Source: Escherichia coli
Lineage (GTDB): Bacteria > Pseudomonadota > Gammaproteobacteria > Enterobacterales > Enterobacteriaceae
NCBI RefSeq assembly: GCF_003334315.1
Contig: NZ_QOWR01000004.1
Direction: 5' to 3' (one strand)
Length of the DNA stretch: 64,000 nucleotides
Shown: positions 1 through 9,062 of the stretch, piece after piece
Layout: each line of letters starts with the position of its first letter
How positions within the stretch are numbered: the first letter of the stretch is position 1
Notes under the pieces: model-generated
Databases searched by the model: none
Seen by the model: the letters and a program-made list of their open reading frames with translations, nothing else
What the model was told of the DNA's origin: nothing
Made by a program: the position numbers and the translations under genes

Positions 1-315
1 CTTTTCAAAAGGGTATTTTGGCTTTGACATATTAGGGGCTATTCCATTTCATCGTCCAACAAAATGGGTGCAGTACACCGGATAATTCCGGCTTGGTGTG
101 GATACTACGTCTCAATTCATCTTCACTTCATCCCTGAAATGTTTGCAATAAAGAGTACATTACGGCTTTTCAACAGCTGTTGCAGTGGTTTCGTGCAGGG
201 TGTGGTACAGGCTCGCAATTCTGATTAACGAGCTGTCCAGGTAGTATGAAGAAATACAATAAGCAGGAATTTATCTTATCTCCCCCGATTTCCGTCATCG
301 GAGGAGATATAACTG

Positions 316-1416
316 TCAGGCAAATATCGTCATCAAATAGGCGGCAAACAGTGCCAGATGCGCTGCGCCATTGAGCACGTTAGTACGTCCGGTGGAGAAG
401 GAGATATGGCACAGCACTAAAGAGGCCACCATCACCACCATTTCTGGCGCACCAAGTGCAAACTGTAATTCGTTACCCGTCATAAAGGCAATTAGCGTGA
501 CGACAGGTACGGTAAGCGAAATGGTTGCTAACACTGAACCAAAGAACAGATTCATCGCGCGCTGGACCTGGTTGTTCAACACTGCTTTTAACGCACCTAA
601 ACCTTCCGGCGACAGAATCAACAGAGCCACCAGGAAGCCAGTAAAGGCGACAGGGGCATTCATGCTGTCGAGCAATGTCTCCAGCGGGCTGGCATTCATT
701 TTGGTGACTGCAATAACGGCAATCAGATGGATAATCAACCAGATAGCATGCCACACGCTGCTATGGGCAGACGGTTTACCGTGATGCGGGTCGTCGTCAT
801 CACTGTCATCTTCGTGCTCGTAGACAAACAAACTTTGATGCGTTTTGGTCTGGATCAGCAAAAATACGCCATACATTGCCGCAGAAATTAATGCTACCAG
901 TAACGCCTGACCGGTTGAAAAATTCGCCGCAGGCAGAGCCATTGGAAATACCAGTACGATTATCGCCAGGGGGAACAGCGCAATTAAATACTGCTTGATA
1001 CCAAACAGATTCATATATTGGGTGGCAAACTTACGACCGCCCAACAATAATGAAAAGCCAACCAGCCCACCGGTAACAATCATAATGATTGAATAGAGCG
1101 TATCACGCATTAGCGTTGGCGCGGCGTCGCCGGTTGCCATTAAAGCTGAAATCAAACTGACTTCAAGAATAACCACTGAAAGGCTAAGAATAAGCGAACC
1201 GTAAGGTTCTCCCAGGCGATGGGCTAATACGTCCGCATGACGGACAACACTAAAGGCGCTACTTAAAATACCAATAAGCGCAAGAAGATTGATGGCAATG
1301 ACCACTGGTAGTGTCTGGCTGCTTCCCCACAGGAACAGCACTACCAGCGCCAGAACCGGGAAAATAAGCGAAGTCTCCTTGTGGCGGGTTTTTACCGCCT
1401 CTTGAGCATTTGACAT
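316..1416 (-). CDS. chaA: Ca2+(Na+)/H+ antiporter ChaA
   Basis: 366-codon ORF beginning MSNAQEAVKTRHKE..., polytopic membrane protein with acidic DDSDDDD loop; track ORF (395 aa) is 5'-extended, internal ATG at 1414-1416 chosen. Confidence 0.93.
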   Translation of the reverse strand: MSNAQEAVKTRHKETSLIFPVLALVVLFLWGSSQTLPVVIAINLLALIGILSSAFSVVRHADVLAHRLGEPYGSLILSLSVVILEVSLISALMATGDAAPTLMRDTLYSIIMIVTGGLVGFSLLLGGRKFATQYMNLFGIKQYLIALFPLAIIVLVFPMALPAANFSTGQALLVALISAAMYGVFLLIQTKTHQSLFVYEHEDDSDDDDPHHGKPSAHSSVWHAIWLIIHLIAVIAVTKMNASPLETLLDSMNAPVAFTGFLVALLILSPEGLGALKAVLNNQVQRAMNLFFGSVLATISLTVPVVTLIAFMTGNELQFALGAPEMVVMVASLVLCHISFSTGRTNVLNGAAHLALFAAYLMTIFA

Positions 1417-1685
1417 TATGGTTATCCCTTTGCAGATGAATTTATCGAAAATGTAAAAAATAGGTAGGAAAAATAACAGAAAGTGTCTGGGTATCGGTAA
1501 CATTTTACGAATTTTTACCCCACTGTCGATTTTTTACTCATTGGGACATAAAAATAAGTATTACGTTTAGACAATGTTTGTTTTAGCGTTTCTTAAGAAC
1601 AGTCTGACATGAAAATTCTTATGTTTTGGCAAGAGTAGATATTGTTGACCACACTTAATGTTCAACTTTGTAAAAGGAGTCAACG

Positions 1686-1916
1686 ATGCCGTATAAAACG
1701 AAAAGCGATCTGCCGGAAAGCGTAAAGCACGTTCTACCGTCTCATGCCCAGGATATCTATAAAGAAGCGTTCAACAGCGCGTGGGATCAATATAAAGATA
1801 AAGAGGATCGGCGTGATGACGCCAGTCGCGAAGAAACCGCGCATAAAGTGGCCTGGGCTGCTGTGAAGCATGAATATGCCAAAGGGGATGATGATAAATG
1901 GCATAAAAAATCGTAA
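1686..1916 (+). CDS. chaB: cation transport regulator ChaB
   Basis: 76-aa ORF MPYKTKSDLPESVKHVLPSHAQDIYKEAF...; divergent from chaA. Confidence 0.93.
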   Translation: MPYKTKSDLPESVKHVLPSHAQDIYKEAFNSAWDQYKDKEDRRDDASREETAHKVAWAAVKHEYAKGDDDKWHKKS

Positions 1917-2073
1917 AACCGGTAGCTTAGTTAAAGCTATTCGTGCGGTGTTGCCTTGCAAGTGGTCCGTGGATTGCATATTGTCCCGTTAGTGGTTTCA
2001 AAATGAGCAGTAAAAATGTCCGGAAGACACCAAAAAGTTGTCGCAGGGAAGTATGCAGTGGCGGAGGTGTAAG

Positions 2074-2769
2074 GTGATAACGCGTGATTTCTTGATGAAT
2101 GCCGATTGTAAAACGGCATTTGGTGCCATTGAAGAATCACTCTTATGGTCAGCAGAGCAACGGGCGGCTTCGCTGGCGGCGACGCTGGCTTGTCGACCTG
2201 ATGAGGGACCGGTGTGGATCTTCGGTTATGGATCGTTGATGTGGAATCCGGCACTGGAGTTTACCGAGTCGTGCACCGGTACACTGGTTGGATGGCATCG
2301 CGCGTTTTGCCTGCGCCTGACCGCCGGGCGCGGGACTGCGCACCAGCCGGGACGGATGCTTGCACTGAAAGAGGGCGGACGCACTACAGGCGTCGCCTAT
2401 CGACTGCCAGAAGAGACGCTGGAGCAGGAACTAACCCTGTTGTGGAAGCGCGAGATGATTACCGGCTGTTATCTGCCAACCTGGTGTCAGCTTGATCTTG
2501 ATGATGGATGCACAGTAAACGCCATTGTGTTTATTATGGACCCGCGACATCCAGAATATGAATCTGACACTCGCGCTCAGGTCATCGCGCCGTTGATTGC
2601 GGCGGCGAGCGGTCCGCTGGGAACCAACGCACAATACCTGTTTTCACTGGAACAGGAGCTTATCAAACTGGGAATGCAGGACGATGGGCTGAATGATTTG
2701 CTGGTATCGGTAAAAAAACTGCTGGCGGAGAATTATCCGGATGGTGTGTTACGGCCGGGATTCGCCTGA
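2074..2769 (+). CDS. chaC: glutathione-specific gamma-glutamylcyclotransferase ChaC
   Basis: ORF 2038..2769; ChaC-like sequence (..WIFGYGSLMWNP..) from GTG at 2074 gives the 231-aa form; start could also be ATG 2053. Confidence 0.85.
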   Translation: MITRDFLMNADCKTAFGAIEESLLWSAEQRAASLAATLACRPDEGPVWIFGYGSLMWNPALEFTESCTGTLVGWHRAFCLRLTAGRGTAHQPGRMLALKEGGRTTGVAYRLPEETLEQELTLLWKREMITGCYLPTWCQLDLDDGCTVNAIVFIMDPRHPEYESDTRAQVIAPLIAAASGPLGTNAQYLFSLEQELIKLGMQDDGLNDLLVSVKKLLAENYPDGVLRPGFA

Positions 2770-2787
2770 GTAAACTTCCCTCATAGT

Positions 2788-2804
2788 GGGGCGTCAGACG
2801 CCCC
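2788..2804. terminator. GC-rich hairpin GGGGCGTCAGACGCCCC between convergent chaC and ychN (probable bidirectional terminator)
   Basis: perfect inverted repeat located between the two stop codons. Confidence 0.5.
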
Positions 2805-2812
2805 CTCAAACA

Positions 2813-3166
2813 TTAAAATGTGAGCACTTTATCGGCTGACAGCGTCCATTGCGCCAGTTCCACAAGAGTACCGATTTCCACCCCATCAATAAGAGGAAGT
2901 GTGCTAATCCCGCGCCCGTCGGTACAGGTTTTGCACAATTTCACCGGTACATTCTGAGCGGTAAGGATCTCCAGCATTTGCTGAATGTTGTAGCCTTCCC
3001 CTGGTTTTTGCCCGCGCAACCCGGCTGTGACCGCATCAGACATGAGGAACAGACGCAGATCCAGATTGCTCTCCTGCTCTCGTAACGCAATGGCCAGCCG
3101 CAAGCTGTTAAACAAGGATTCGCTCCCGTAAGGTGCGCCATTGGCAACGATCACGATTTTTTGCAT
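2813..3166 (-). CDS. ychN: DsrE/DsrF-like family protein YchN
   Basis: 117-aa ORF MQKIVIVANGAPYGSESLFNSLRLAIALRE... Confidence 0.92.
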   Translation of the reverse strand: MQKIVIVANGAPYGSESLFNSLRLAIALREQESNLDLRLFLMSDAVTAGLRGQKPGEGYNIQQMLEILTAQNVPVKLCKTCTDGRGISTLPLIDGVEIGTLVELAQWTLSADKVLTF

Positions 3167-3183
3167 TATTTACTCCTGTATTC

Positions 3184-3287
<104 letters not shown>

Positions 3288-3315
3288 TTGCCAGTAATCG
3301 TTATTCTTAAAGGAT

Positions 3316-4746
3316 ATGGTTTTTCATTTTTTACCGGAAGTTACCGACGTTTTGAGCCGTTTCGTTCCTCGCATTATTTCGTTTTATTTACTCTTGCTGG
3401 CGGCAGGCGGTACAGCTAACGCACAATCTACCTTCGAGCAAAAAGCGGCAAATCCCTTTGATAATAACAATGATGGTCTGCCGGATTTAGGCATGGCACC
3501 TGAAAATCATGATGGGGAAAAACACTTTGCTGAAATTGTGAAAGATTTCGGCGAAACCAGTATGAATGATAACGGGCTGGATACTGGCGAGCAGGCAAAA
3601 GCTTTCGCATTGGGAAAAGTCCGCGACGCGCTTAGTCAACAGGTTAATCAGCACGTAGAGTCCTGGCTATCACCGTGGGGAAATGCCAGTGTTGATGTCA
3701 AAGTGGATAACGAAGGTCATTTTACCGGCAGTCGTGGAAGCTGGTTTGTGCCGTTACAAGATAATGATCGTTATCTCACCTGGAGCCAGCTTGGTCTTAC
3801 TCAGCAGGATGATGGGTTGGTGAGCAATGTGGGCGTTGGGCAACGCTGGGCGCGCGGCAACTGGCTGGTGGGTTATAACACTTTTTATGACAACTTGCTG
3901 GACGAAAATCTTCAGCGAGCGGGCTTTGGTGCCGAAGCGTGGGGCGAATATTTGCGACTATCGGCAAACTTTTATCAGCCATTTGCTGCATGGCATGAAC
4001 AGACAGCCACGCAGGAACAACGGATGGCGCGCGGGTACGACCTGACAGCCCGGATGCGCATGCCGTTCTATCAACACCTCAATACCAGTGTCAGCGTAGA
4101 ACAGTATTTTGGTGATCGTGTTGATTTGTTTAACTCTGGTACGGGTTATCACAATCCCGTCGCGTTGAGTCTGGGATTAAATTACACCCCTGTGCCATTA
4201 GTCACTGTGACGGCCCAGCATAAACAGGGTGAAAGTGGCGAGAATCAAAATAACCTCGGGCTGAATCTTAATTACCGCTTTGGTGTACCGCTCAAAAAAC
4301 AACTTTCTGCGGGCGAGGTTGCCGAAAGTCAGTCGTTACGTGGCAGTCGCTATGATAATCCGCAGCGAAATAATCTACCGACTCTTGAGTACCGACAGCG
4401 AAAAACGTTAACGGTGTTTCTGGCGACACCGCCGTGGGATCTAAAACCTGGCGAAACAGTGCCGCTGAAATTACAAATCCGCAGTCGTTACGGTATTCGG
4501 CAACTGATTTGGCAGGGCGATACGCAGATATTAAGTTTGACGCCAGGCGCACAAGCCAACAGCGCGGAGGGCTGGACGCTGATCATGCCTGACTGGCAGA
4601 ACGGGGAAGGGGCGAGCAATCACTGGCGATTGTCGGTGGTGGTGGAAGATAACCAGGGGCAGCGTGTCTCCTCCAATGAGATCACGCTAACGCTTGTCGA
4701 ACCGTTCGACGCATTGTCAAACGACGAACTGCGCTGGGAACCGTAA
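3316..4746 (+). CDS. ychO: invasin/intimin-family outer-membrane protein YchO (short form without long passenger domain)
   Basis: 476-codon ORF with signal-like N-terminus and invasin beta-domain-like region; true start uncertain (ATG 3316 or in-frame TTG 3352). Confidence 0.85.
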   Translation: MVFHFLPEVTDVLSRFVPRIISFYLLLLAAGGTANAQSTFEQKAANPFDNNNDGLPDLGMAPENHDGEKHFAEIVKDFGETSMNDNGLDTGEQAKAFALGKVRDALSQQVNQHVESWLSPWGNASVDVKVDNEGHFTGSRGSWFVPLQDNDRYLTWSQLGLTQQDDGLVSNVGVGQRWARGNWLVGYNTFYDNLLDENLQRAGFGAEAWGEYLRLSANFYQPFAAWHEQTATQEQRMARGYDLTARMRMPFYQHLNTSVSVEQYFGDRVDLFNSGTGYHNPVALSLGLNYTPVPLVTVTAQHKQGESGENQNNLGLNLNYRFGVPLKKQLSAGEVAESQSLRGSRYDNPQRNNLPTLEYRQRKTLTVFLATPPWDLKPGETVPLKLQIRSRYGIRQLIWQGDTQILSLTPGAQANSAEGWTLIMPDWQNGEGASNHWRLSVVVEDNQGQRVSSNEITLTLVEPFDALSNDELRWEP

Positions 4747-5397
4747 TCAGAAAATGCGCTCCTGATGCACCCATACCGCTGCTTCCACGCGAGACTTGAG
4801 CTTCATTTTCTTCAGCATGTGCTTGACGTGCACTTTTACTGTGCTTTCGGTGATATCCAGGCGGCGGGCAATCATCTTGTTCGGCAAACCCTGGGCAATC
4901 AGCTTGAGAATATCGCGCTCGCGTGGGGTTAACTGGTTAACATCGCGCTCAGTAGTGGCACGGTTAGCGCGCAAGCTGGCGGCCAGAACAGGCGTTAATG
5001 CTTCGCTTAATACCATTTCGCCAGCAGCTGCCTGATGCAATGCTTTCAGCAGATCTTCCGGTTCCATATCTTTTAACAGATAGCCATCCGCGCCGCGTTT
5101 CAGTGCGGTGACCACATCTTCTTCATGGTTAGAGACGCTGAATACCACAATGCGCCCTGAGAGGGACTTTTCGCGCAGTTTATCCAGCGTTTCCAGACCG
5201 TTCATGCCGGGCATATTGAGATCTAACAGGATCAGATCGGGATCAAGAGACTCCGCCAGTTCAATACCCTGTTCGCCATTACTCGCTTCGCCAACCACGG
5301 TGATATCTGGTGCCATACTGATAAGCTGTTTTACGCCAGTTCGCAGCATCGGGTGATCGTCAATCAGCAGGATAGTAGCCGGTTCCTGATTACTCAT
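4747..5397 (-). CDS. narL: nitrate/nitrite response regulator NarL
   Basis: 216 codons starting [25 protein letters not shown]..., receiver plus LuxR-type HTH; track ORF is 5'-extended; start overlaps narX stop by 8 bp. Confidence 0.96.
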
Positions 5398-7186
5398 GGG
5401 TATCTCCTTGGACGTCTGTGAAAGTTTTTTCGGGAATAAAGGTGACCACCACTTCGGTGCCACCTGATTCACGACGGCGGACGCGGCAATCGCCTCGTAA
5501 ACTTTGCGCACGGTCGCGCATTATTATCATGCCGTAGTGATTGCTGCGGATGGCATTTTCAGGCACGCCGCAGCCGTTATCCTGGACGGTCAGTTTGACC
5601 TGATTATCGTTTTGCGCCACCGTCACCACGACCTCACTCGCTTGCGAATGTTTGAGGGCGTTACTTAATGCCTCACGGGCAATTTGCAACAAGTGGATTG
5701 CCTGATGTGAAGGCACCAGACGAGGCGGCAATTGATAATCCAGCTTCACCGGGAAGCCAAATTTGGCGCTGTACTCTTCGCAACTCGCTTCCAGCGCCGG
5801 ACGTAATCCAGGCTCGGTGAGCTGCAAGCGGAATGTGGTGAGCAATTCACGCAACTGCGCCCAGGATGCATTCAGTTCGTTACGGATCTGACTTAACAGT
5901 TCGCGGCTGCTTTCTGGCAGCGCATCGCCCTGCATCTGTAAACAACTCACCTGCATCTTCATGCAAGAGAGAGATTGGGCAATAGAATCATGCAGTTCGC
6001 GCGCAATGGTGGCACGCTCTTCCATCACGATCAACTGTTGCTGACGTTCCTGATGCCGATCCAGCGCCAGCGTGGCGGTGAGTTGTTCAACCAGGGTATC
6101 CACCAGTTGTTGTTGATCATGGCTAAGATGACGCCCCTGCGGTAGGGTCGCCAGCAAAATACCGTACTGCGTATGTGAGTCAGCCAGCCGCCACTTCAGG
6201 GTTGTGCCGCGATCGCCAACGGGTAATACGCCGCGCGGGCAGAGCTGGCAGCCTTTATCATCACAAGTCATATCTGGCTGGCAGGTAAACTCCTGATGAT
6301 TCTCTTCATCATCAGTGTCATACACCCGCAATTCGATATCACGTAGCAGGGTTAAATTCTGTAAGCCGTTGAGTACAGGTGACAGGCGTTCACACAGCGG
6401 GGCGCGGGAATGCAAACGGCGGTTAGCCTGCCATAAAAAAGAGAGGATCTGATTTTTATGCTCCAGCCCGGCGGTTTTCTCCTGAACCCGCTGCTCAAGT
6501 ACGGCATAACTTTCGGCCAGTTCTGCAGACATATTGTTCAATGCAGTTCCAAGCATCGCCATTTCGTTGCGCCCGCTGATGTTCGCGCGTTGGGTAAAAT
6601 CGCGATGACTGACGGCACTCGCCATTGCCAGCAGTTGCCGCCACGGTTGTAGCAGTCGCGCCCGCAACCAGATAATAGTGAACACCAGTAAAAGTGCCAT
6701 AAATACCGCCATTACCCGATGGACCAGTACCACTGTCTCAATGCGCATTTCCGTGGTGCGGTCAAAACCAGATACCAGCTGATCAAGCCCGGCAACAAAC
6801 TGGCTGACATCCGCTGACACCGTTTCGCGGTTTTGTGCACGCATCAGTGCAGGGATCAGTTCATTACGCCAGTAATCTTGTAAACCCTGTAATTGCGCCA
6901 GTTGTCCGTCTCGTTCTGCTGCTCGAGTCAACTCGGCGCTAAATGCCGTTTGTTCCATCTCTTTAATTAAGGGCTTGTCTTTCTCGCTTAATGGCACTGC
7001 TGCCAACAGACGGTAACTTTGCATGCGCAGCGATCCCGCTTTGTTGATCGCATGGGCGCTGCCCTGAACGCCTTGCACCAGCCAGCCAGAAACCGCCATC
7101 CCTGCCAGTCCAATAGCAGTAGAAAGCAACACAATAAGCGCAACCTGATTAACCAGGGTGAGCGGAGAGAGACAACGTTTAAGCAT
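5390..7186 (-). CDS. narX: nitrate/nitrite sensor histidine kinase NarX
   Basis: 598-aa [24 protein letters not shown]..., two TM segments, HAMP and histidine kinase regions. Confidence 0.96.
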
Positions 7187-7282
7187 GTAAACCTCTTCCT
7201 TCAGGCTTTAAATGAGCAATAACCTTAATGAATGTGACGATACATTCTGGAATGGCAGTATTCTCGGCTATTGGCTGAAGTA

Positions 7283-7309
7283 TACCCATACCCGGAAAGA
7301 GTTACTCCT
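7283..7309 (+). promoter_or_regulatory. NarL heptamer-like motifs (TACCCAT, TACTCCT) upstream of narK
   Basis: matches to the NarL heptamer consensus TACYYMT at 7283-7289 and 7303-7309. Confidence 0.5.
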
Positions 7310-7451
7310 TATTTGCCGTGTGGTTAGTCGCTTTACATCGGTAAGGGTAGGGATTTTACAGCACCGTGAAAAATCTCATAATTTTTATGAAATCACTGTA
7401 CTCACTATGGGTAATGATAAATATCAATGATAGATAAAGTTATCTTATCGT

Positions 7452-7465
7452 TTGATTTACATCAA
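7452..7465 (+). promoter_or_regulatory. FNR box TTGAT-N4-ATCAA in narK promoter
   Basis: perfect FNR consensus TTGATttacATCAA about 60 bp upstream of the narK ATG. Confidence 0.8.
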
Positions 7466-7524
7466 ATTGCCTTTAGCTCCAGACACTAAGGTGGCAGACA
7501 TCGAAACGAGTATCAGAGGTGTCT

Positions 7525-8916
7525 ATGAGTCACTCATCCGCCCCCGAAAGGGCTACTGGAGCTGTCATTACAGATTGGCGACCGGAAGATCCTGCGTTCT
7601 GGCAACAACGCGGTCAACGTATTGCCAGCCGCAACCTGTGGATTTCCGTTCCCTGTCTGCTGCTGGCGTTTTGCGTATGGATGTTGTTCAGCGCTGTTGC
7701 GGTGAACTTACCGAAAGTCGGTTTTAATTTTACGACCGATCAGCTATTTATGTTGACTGCGCTGCCTTCGGTTTCTGGCGCGTTATTACGTGTTCCATAC
7801 TCCTTTATGGTTCCTATCTTCGGTGGTCGTCGCTGGACGGCGTTCAGCACCGGTATTCTGATTATTCCTTGCGTCTGGCTGGGTTTTGCCGTGCAGGATA
7901 CCTCCACGCCTTATAGCGTCTTCATCATCATCTCTCTGCTATGCGGCTTTGCTGGCGCGAACTTCGCATCCAGTATGGCAAACATCAGCTTCTTCTTTCC
8001 GAAACAGAAGCAGGGTGGCGCGCTGGGTCTGAATGGTGGTCTGGGAAACATGGGCGTCAGCGTCATGCAGTTGGTTGCTCCGCTGGTGGTATCACTGTCG
8101 ATTTTCGCAGTATTTGGTAGCCAGGGCGTCAAACAGCCGGATGGGACTGAGCTGTATCTGGCGAATGCGTCCTGGATATGGGTGCCGTTCCTTGCCATCT
8201 TCACCATTGCGGCGTGGTTTGGCATGAACGATCTTGCTACCTCGAAAGCCTCCATCAAGGAGCAGTTGCCGGTACTCAAACGGGGTCATCTGTGGATTAT
8301 GAGCCTGCTGTATCTGGCAACCTTCGGCTCCTTCATCGGCTTCTCCGCGGGCTTTGCAATGCTGTCAAAAACGCAGTTCCCGGATGTTCAGATTCTGCAA
8401 TACGCTTTCTTCGGGCCGTTTATTGGTGCGCTGGCGCGTTCTGCAGGTGGTGCATTATCTGACCGTCTGGGCGGAACTCGTGTCACGCTGGTGAACTTTA
8501 TTCTGATGGCGATTTTCAGCGGCCTGCTGTTCCTGACCTTACCGACTGACGGGCAGGGCGGAAGCTTCATGGCGTTCTTCGCGGTCTTCCTGGCGCTGTT
8601 CCTGACAGCTGGGCTGGGTAGTGGTTCCACTTTCCAGATGATTTCAGTGATCTTCCGTAAACTGACAATGGATCGCGTGAAAGCAGAAGGGGGTTCTGAC
8701 GAACGTGCGATGCGTGAAGCGGCAACCGACACGGCGGCGGCGCTGGGTTTCATCTCTGCGATTGGCGCGATTGGTGGCTTCTTTATCCCGAAAGCGTTTG
8801 GTAGCTCGCTGGCATTAACGGGTTCGCCAGTCGGCGCAATGAAGGTATTTTTGATTTTCTATATCGCCTGCGTAGTGATTACCTGGGCGGTATATGGTCG
8901 GCATTCTAAAAAATAA
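7525..8916 (+). CDS. narK: nitrate/nitrite antiporter NarK (MFS)
   Basis: 463 codons from ATG 7525 (MSHSSAPERATGAVITDWRPEDPAFWQQRG...); 12-TM MFS-like. Confidence 0.96.
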   Translation: MSHSSAPERATGAVITDWRPEDPAFWQQRGQRIASRNLWISVPCLLLAFCVWMLFSAVAVNLPKVGFNFTTDQLFMLTALPSVSGALLRVPYSFMVPIFGGRRWTAFSTGILIIPCVWLGFAVQDTSTPYSVFIIISLLCGFAGANFASSMANISFFFPKQKQGGALGLNGGLGNMGVSVMQLVAPLVVSLSIFAVFGSQGVKQPDGTELYLANASWIWVPFLAIFTIAAWFGMNDLATSKASIKEQLPVLKRGHLWIMSLLYLATFGSFIGFSAGFAMLSKTQFPDVQILQYAFFGPFIGALARSAGGALSDRLGGTRVTLVNFILMAIFSGLLFLTLPTDGQGGSFMAFFAVFLALFLTAGLGSGSTFQMISVIFRKLTMDRVKAEGGSDERAMREAATDTAAALGFISAIGAIGGFFIPKAFGSSLALTGSPVGAMKVFLIFYIACVVITWAVYGRHSKK

Positions 8917-9062
8917 ACCGTTACTCGTCATACTTCGGGTTACATGTGCTGCGGCTGCGTTCATTCACCCCAGTCACTTACTTTAGTAAGCTCCTGGGAT
9001 TCATTCACTTGCCGCCTTCCTGTAAACCGAATTATATAGAGTAAAATATTTGATTATCCTTT

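Follow-up and report, generated by a model that had tools for sequence, protein, structure and literature searches.

Within the analysed stretch of Escherichia coli DNA (64,000 nucleotides of contig NZ_QOWR01000004.1, assembly GCF_003334315.1; hereafter the window), the plus-strand open reading frame at positions 3316..4746, which amounts to 476 codons when counted from ATG in the six-frame ORF list, is the intact and already annotated E. coli core gene ychO, published also as iatA. It is preceded by ychN (2813..3166, minus strand) with chaA, chaB and chaC upstream of the locus, and followed by narL, read on the minus strand from 4747, with narX and narK downstream; being flanked by divergent ychN on one side and convergent narL on the other, ychO is monocistronic. 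The stop of narX and the start of narL overlap by 8 nt (5390-5397), as in RefSeq, which is the usual translational coupling of a two-component operon. Megablast of the segment 3100-4900 matched 5,423 of 5,426 complete E. coli genomes, query cover being at least 80% in 5,421 of the 5,426 at 98-99.9% identity, and the window gene shares 98.6% of its DNA sequence with K-12 b1220. At the matched feature RefSeq gives the label “ychO: inverse autotransporter invasin YchO”.

The family assignment is carried by the NCBIfam equivalog model NF007556 (“YchO/YchP family invasin”), which scores 803.4 bits against a curated cutoff of 508 and is matched over profile positions 3-452 of 454, so that the protein belongs to YchO/YchP both by score and by full-length coverage. 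The chromosomal position agrees with this assignment: the order ychN - ychO - convergent narL is found in the window, in annotated E. coli records and, as far as narL is concerned, at 70 of the 72 orthologous loci that were collected by scanning one genome per species (about 70 Enterobacteriaceae species). The models of SinH (NF033423, 242 bits against a cutoff of 999) and of intimin (NF033627, 186 bits against 1400) stay below their thresholds, placing YchO in neither family. In Pfam the sole domain is PF11924 (IAT_beta, E=5.2e-103, residues 76-353 of the 476-aa form, corresponding to window 3541-4374), with no LysM, Big_1, Big_2, Intimin_C or lectin domain returned by the scan, and among solved structures in PDB only the barrels of invasin (4E1T, 1.5e-47) and intimin (4E1S, 8.5e-41) are matched by sequence. 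Both the gene name proposed in the initial annotation and the invasin/intimin-like beta domain seen there are thereby confirmed. The name iatA comes from Goh et al. (2019), who described iatA (EcSMS35_1920, 1,395 bp) in 124 of 126 genomes, given as 99% of E. coli genomes (PMC6714894). In the RefSeq record of SMS-3-5 the ychO CDS occupies 1,942,450-1,943,844 (1,395 bp) and adjoins narL and ychN; agreement in length, prevalence and position thus identifies iatA with ychO, an identity that Goh et al. do not state. Features of the locus are collected in Table 1.

Table 1. Features of the ychO locus in the window; residues are numbered from TTG 3352.
Feature	Position	Strand	Evidence
Candidate sigma-70-like promoter, TTGGCA-17-CATTAT, the only such match upstream; overlaps ychN start	3141..3169	+	1 found vs 1.9 expected in shuffles, no better than chance
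In-frame 5′ extension, ATG 3316 and 11 codons (MVFHFLPEVTDV)	3316..3351	+	Not conserved; strain alignments
T6 run, varying by strain (T6, T5 or TTATT) and fixing the frame of ATG 3316	3327..3332	+	Alignments
Weak Shine-Dalgarno-like GGAAGU, 10 nt ahead of TTG 3352 (putative role)	3336..3341	+	Anti-SD duplex -3.6 kcal/mol
ychO CDS, TTG start, 464 codons and TAA	3352..4746	+	RefSeq mapping, NF007556 score
Predicted Sec-type signal peptide, residues 1-24 (n MSRFVPR, +2; h IISFYLLLLAAGG; c TANA; cleavage ANA/Q)	3352..3423	+	Rule-based analysis
N-terminal periplasmic part, residues 25-107; NPFDNNxDGLPDLG motif, helices predicted, LysM lacking	3424..3672	+	dN/dS, AF2, Pfam
12-stranded inverse-autotransporter beta-barrel, residues 108-309	3673..4278	+	AF2 pLDDT ~87-97; Foldseek; PF11924
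Linker (residues 310-344) threading back through the lumen of the barrel; short helices at 314-326	4279..4383	+	4E1T/4E1S alignment, AF2
Single Ig-like (D00-type) passenger, residues 345-450	4384..4701	+	AF2 domain model, 6TQD match, homologue alignments, dN/dS
Poorly conserved C-terminal tail, residues 451-464, and TAA stop	4702..4746	+	pLDDT ~50, higher dN/dS

At the 3′ side the two converging genes touch each other: the TAA of ychO (4744-4746) is immediately followed by TCA 4747-4749, the minus-strand TGA of narL, leaving zero intergenic space, and 70 of the 72 Enterobacteriaceae loci show this close convergence, the remaining two running off their contigs. Any narXL terminator must therefore lie within the ychO coding sequence. 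Three terminator-like matches (hairpin plus T-run) were detected antisense to the codons of the Ig-like domain (4375-4493, minus strand), the whole segment 3100-4900 containing 5 such sites against 2.1 expected; the search for a narXL terminator in the 3′ end of ychO found a 400-nt region that is not unusually structured (z=0.63), and no hairpin with U-run directly follows the narL stop. Deletions of ychO may thus disturb the 3′ end of narL. On the opposite side, the sigma-70-like element of Table 1 is a possible, weak candidate for the ychO promoter, the leader 3280-3420 folds no better than shuffled sequences (z=0.20), and the search for regulatory RNAs returned no Rfam family within window positions 1-9000.

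The anatomy of the product was traced from its N-terminus. Counted from TTG 3352, rule-based assessment recognizes a Sec signal peptide with a hydrophobic core of KD 2.67, and equivalent A-x-A/G-x-A cleavage sites are conserved in orthologues. The following periplasmic region combines dN/dS of about 0.05 (0.04-0.06) with AF2 pLDDT below 50 and yet contains helices predicted, at this low confidence, over residues 54-69, 79-95 and 100-109. Its NPFDNNxDGLPDLG motif is almost invariant and falls into a segment (3424-3540, residues 25-63) situated outside the Pfam barrel model. In the AlphaFold2 model built from 77 aligned homologues, confidence is low for residues 1-107 and high for 108-456, where twelve barrel strands (residues 111-309) are followed by a beta-sandwich (345-448). 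Foldseek superimposes the modelled barrel on that of invasin 4E1T with TMt 0.96, rmsd of 1.3 Å and 39% identity and on that of intimin 4E1S with TM 0.95. The crystallized 4E1T and 4E1S constructs extend over the linker as well, and the YchO linker is part of their alignment (positions 120-360 of the 476-aa query). When modelled alone, the C-terminal 130 residues reach pLDDT of ~90 over the core; the best PDB match of this domain is 6TQD, the D00-D0 part of intimin (E=1.2e-5, ~105 columns), and the remoter fold matches are generic Ig and FnIII folds. In an exhaustive search among representatives, the alignments of inverse autotransporters of much greater length (up to 6,629 aa) with YchO end at its residues ~445-460, and the YchO passenger therefore corresponds to their first, membrane-proximal Ig domain, 14 residues after which the protein ends. 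In sum, the following features of type Ve secretion are present: an N-terminal Sec signal peptide (rule-based, from TTG 3352, conserved in orthologues), the PF11924 12-stranded barrel ahead of the passenger, the lumenal linker and the C-terminal Ig-like passenger, the latter with the minimum of one domain. One variant of 556 aa on an ENA contig (P0001) has 80 internal residues (DTGEQAKAF...TQQDDGL) duplicated in tandem, across the transition from the periplasmic region to the first strands of the barrel; this duplication could be an assembly artefact or real.

Taking together family membership, domain anatomy, start codon, gene conservation and selection, as they emerge from the present analysis, we consider it highly probable that ychO encodes a complete, functional and minimal type Ve secretion protein (inverse autotransporter). 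The export route via Sec, BAM and a hairpin, the surface position of the passenger, the low rate of translation and the role in adhesion are deduced from the family and from the literature, with intimin and invasin as the models for export and exposure. Translation would proceed from the conserved TTG 3352 with the aid of a weak Shine-Dalgarno sequence and probably with low output; the 24-residue signal peptide would direct YchO to the periplasm, where the BAM machinery would insert the N-terminal 12-stranded barrel in the outer membrane, and the C-terminal Ig-like domain of ~105 residues would then be exported through the barrel as a hairpin, the linker staying in the pore and the conserved N-terminal segment of ~80 residues remaining periplasmic. 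The expected outcome is a single membrane-proximal Ig domain, homologous to intimin D00, at the cell surface. With one Ig domain YchO would reach out from the membrane by no more than a few nanometres, and direct binding of a host receptor through the LPS layer is therefore doubtful.

The adhesive role suggested by the family and the literature goes back to one genetic study, in which deletion of ychO in APEC lowered adhesion, invasion, biofilm formation and virulence, and complementation in trans restored adhesion, invasion and biofilm (Pilatti et al., 2016; PMC4787180). The mutant was pleiotropic, with altered expression of 426 genes (PMC4787180), and since, in addition, the deletion abuts the 3′ end of narL, some of its phenotypes could be indirect. 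Pleiotropy also invites another interpretation, namely that YchO is not an adhesin and acts as a translocation or envelope helper, aiding the export of other proteins in the manner of ZirT with ZirS and ZirU or contributing to outer-membrane homeostasis. Such a function was raised for inverse autotransporters with short passengers by Goh et al. (2019), who ascribed to IatA a short passenger of IgSF/FnIII-like fold, found the protein not detectable and speculated that it might help to translocate other proteins (PMC6714894), as well as by Heinz et al. (2016), who described a monophyletic and possibly ancestral group with very short C-terminal extensions and discussed ZirT-like translocators (PMC4943183). 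It would suit a core gene that is highly conserved in commensal and environmental Enterobacteriaceae and is not pathogen-specific, and it would give a task to the strongly conserved periplasmic motif; nevertheless, monocistronic ychO, enclosed between divergent ychN and convergent narL, has no co-encoded substrate gene, the barrel lumen is filled by the linker in the AF2 model as well as in crystal structures of homologues, and adhesion and invasion were recovered in APEC by trans-complementation (PMC4787180), all of which makes the helper function unlikely. Distinctly unlikely, in our estimation, is also that YchO serves as a housekeeping outer-membrane component, the NPFDNNxDGLPDLG motif and the Ig domain being engaged in envelope biogenesis or translocation and the T5/T6 variation of the leader adding a strain-specific second initiation site that tunes the protein level.

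This variation bears directly on the beginning of the minimal type Ve protein preferred here. Downstream of the in-frame stop at 3295-3297, only two canonical (ATG/GTG/TTG) in-frame starts precede the hydrophobic core, ATG 3316 and TTG 3352; both had been listed in the initial annotation as candidates, and the listing is correct, while the ambiguity disappears on comparison of strains, TTG being conserved and the in-frame ATG an accident of the T-run. In all 13 intact records inspected the RefSeq start corresponds to TTG 3352. Among 14 E. coli leaders including the window, drawn at even steps along the similarity ranking and thus not giving an unbiased frequency, ATG 3316 is in frame in five (window, HCP6S3, O157 EC4115, A1_136 and NMBU-W13E19), its equivalent stands out of frame at -35 in eight, K-12 included, and one divergent strain (L004) has no equivalent. 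The loss of frame in K-12 and the others is due to the variable T5/T6 run, the K-12 run between ATG and TTG being 1 nt shorter than that of the window. Of three further Escherichia lineages, L005 has the ATG out of frame, and L006 and L007 lack it; over the 17 Escherichia sequences of the comparison, 12 thus have no in-frame ATG. All Citrobacter loci have an in-frame stop five codons before the conserved TTG, making an upstream start impossible there; Salmonella arizonae and diarizonae retain the TTG-Ser-Arg start, many Enterobacter retain TTG with ATG immediately after it, and in all Escherichia, Citrobacter and Salmonella loci TTG is the sole start codon upstream of the signal peptide. Judged by this comparative evidence, which appears to settle the matter, the predicted start of ychO resolves to TTG 3352, giving a CDS of 1,395 bp and a protein of 464 aa, and ATG 3316 looks like a lineage-specific artefact of T-run length.

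As for the strain analysed, where the ATG happens to be in frame, initiation at it or at both codons would yield a 476-aa precursor with a longer n-region. ATG is the stronger initiation codon, the AAGGA just before it forms a better anti-SD duplex than the element preceding TTG 3352 (-5.4 versus -3.6 kcal/mol), in some automatic gene calls (P0002, P0003) the product has 476 aa, and the mature protein would be identical once the signal peptide is cleaved. The AAGGA, however, ends 1 nt from ATG 3316, which is too close for working Shine-Dalgarno spacing; the ATG is unusable in most of the Escherichia sequences and any upstream start is barred in Citrobacter; RefSeq never uses it in the records inspected; and the extension adds E and D, lowering the net charge of the n-region from +2 to 0 over its 19 residues. 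By rule-based analysis the signal peptide is canonical from TTG 3352 only; since it and the beta domain are both present, the refuting condition named in the initial annotation (neither of the two) does not apply. Frame conservation, Shine-Dalgarno spacing and n-region charge rule out ATG 3316 as the start of the gene, and its use even in this strain is very improbable. A third start, ATG 3493, located 141 bp 3′ of TTG 3352 and used in older annotations, is ruled out as well, no signal peptide being recognized from it by the same rules. Pilatti et al. (2016) found the older annotation short of 141 bp of signal-peptide sequence and re-annotated the gene 141 bp upstream of ATG 3493 (PMC4787180), the very spacing of 3352 and 3493. 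The GGAAGU ahead of TTG 3352, whose weakness and distance of 10 nt are a point against the reading preferred here, is invariant in the E. coli sequences compared; this weak Shine-Dalgarno sequence, preceded by a U-rich tract, suggests that translation of ychO may be kept deliberately low. A separate case is presented by the orthologues of Enterobacteriaceae UBA7338 (L042) and “Escherichia sp.” ESNIH1 (L043), in which the part preceding the signal-peptide core offers CTG codons but no ATG, GTG or TTG. In Pseudescherichia vulneris (L049), closely related to them, ATG stands at this place, which points to initiation at CTG or to a start codon lost only recently.

The remaining question concerns the length. 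YchO is indeed far shorter than invasins and intimins, as had been noticed from the reading frame: homologues mostly range from hundreds of residues to 6629 aa, the intimin model has 939 positions and the SinH model 730, and exhaustive representative search revealed a few other short family members, of 457-508 aa. All 72 orthologous loci, distributed over Escherichia, Citrobacter, Salmonella (arizonae, diarizonae), Enterobacter, Leclercia, Lelliottia, Kosakonia, Phytobacter, Cedecea and other genera, encode about 450-468 aa with 61-94% identity. According to Nei-Gojobori estimates against other Escherichia lineages and Citrobacter, dN/dS is 0.06-0.07 for the whole gene and 0.03-0.12 across closer comparisons; by parts, it amounts to 0.04-0.06 in the periplasmic N-region, 0.03-0.04 in the barrel and 0.07-0.14 in the Ig domain, all parts of ychO thus being under strong purifying selection. 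A length of ~460 aa at 72 loci together with low dN/dS implies an ancient short form that selection has preserved, and narL, placed directly at the ychO stop, leaves no space for lost passenger domains. Of the two words in the earlier description of a “truncated or minimal” outer membrane protein of the adhesin family, only the second can be retained: the gene is short but complete, with a conserved minimal architecture. Its interpretation as a truncated, decaying remnant of a longer invasin/intimin-type adhesin that has lost its function, to which one might be led by the size of most homologues, by the lack of Big-repeat, lectin and LysM domains and by disruption with IS elements now and then, as with IS5 in PEC41, is extremely improbable and, as a pseudogene reading, essentially excluded by length conservation, synteny and dN/dS, considering the same size and architecture in ~70 species with no remnants beyond the stop, the constraint of ~0.06 overall extending to the passenger, the match to the equivalog model over its full length, the intactness of ychO in 5421 of 5426 E. 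coli genomes and the possibly ancestral status of the short-extension group (Heinz et al., 2016; PMC4943183).

Two deviations from the intact state were encountered among E. coli strains. In PEC41 (L085, locus 253-2846) IS5 resides near codon 22 of ychO, resulting in two annotated pseudogene fragments, and in S7 (match H30) the ychO match is likewise split; IS insertions in ychO are rare. Another peculiarity is seen at synonymous positions: codons 91-240 (3625-4071, the first half of the barrel) show synonymous divergence of 1.3-2.7 versus other Escherichia lineages, compared with 0.5-0.9 in flanking narL and ychN and in the 3′ end of ychO. Unusually low synonymous divergence of the Ig-domain codons is thereby ruled out, their values being at the level of flanking genes and those of barrel codons 91-240 being raised instead; low codon bias and old recombination are the possibilities for this rise.

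The result obtained for ychO is correct but ordinary, the gene, its family, short passenger and near-universality having been published already (Pilatti et al., 2016; Goh et al., 2019, as iatA; NF007556), and its importance reaches little beyond annotation hygiene. In this respect, ATG 3316 as delivered by Prodigal-type callers in 476-aa models is an artefact and TTG 3352 should be used; “truncated” may be replaced by “conserved minimal architecture”; ychO and iatA should be read as one gene carrying two literature names; and the adjacency of ychO deletions to the narL 3′ end is a caveat in reading the pleiotropic phenotypes reported.

Among known systems, ZirT resembles YchO in that its inverse-autotransporter barrel bears a short C-terminal region of IgSF type (PMC4943183), and differs in having zirS and zirU downstream, whereas ychO is met by converging narL and has no downstream partner. 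Next to its own family, YchO scores highest with SinH/IatB of Salmonella and E. coli B2 (242 bits), the alignment (residues 23-369) reaching from the signal peptide across the barrel; Goh et al. describe SinH/IatB as likewise devoid of LysM (PMC6714894), while with ~730 aa SinH has a larger passenger than YchO. With the founders of type Ve, Yersinia invasin (InvA) and EHEC/EPEC intimin (Eae), YchO has in common the homologous 12-stranded barrel and lumenal linker (35-39% identity, TM 0.95-0.96), and its first extracellular Ig domain resembles D00 of intimin, whereas further Big domains, the C-type lectin or receptor-binding tip and LysM are lacking, the integrin- and Tir-binding parts being absent. 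YchO thus has neither the multi-domain passenger ending in Invasin_D3/Intimin_C that marks Yersinia invasin, with which the barrel alone is common, nor the LysM, D0-D2 Big domains and Tir-binding lectin that mark intimin. With K-12 ychO and with IatA (EcSMS35_1920), finally, the window gene is identical in kind: it is the same gene, with the same 1395-bp CDS, ychN-ychO-narL locus and architecture, and the sole difference from K-12 ychO is the T6 allele of the window, which places the upstream ATG in frame.
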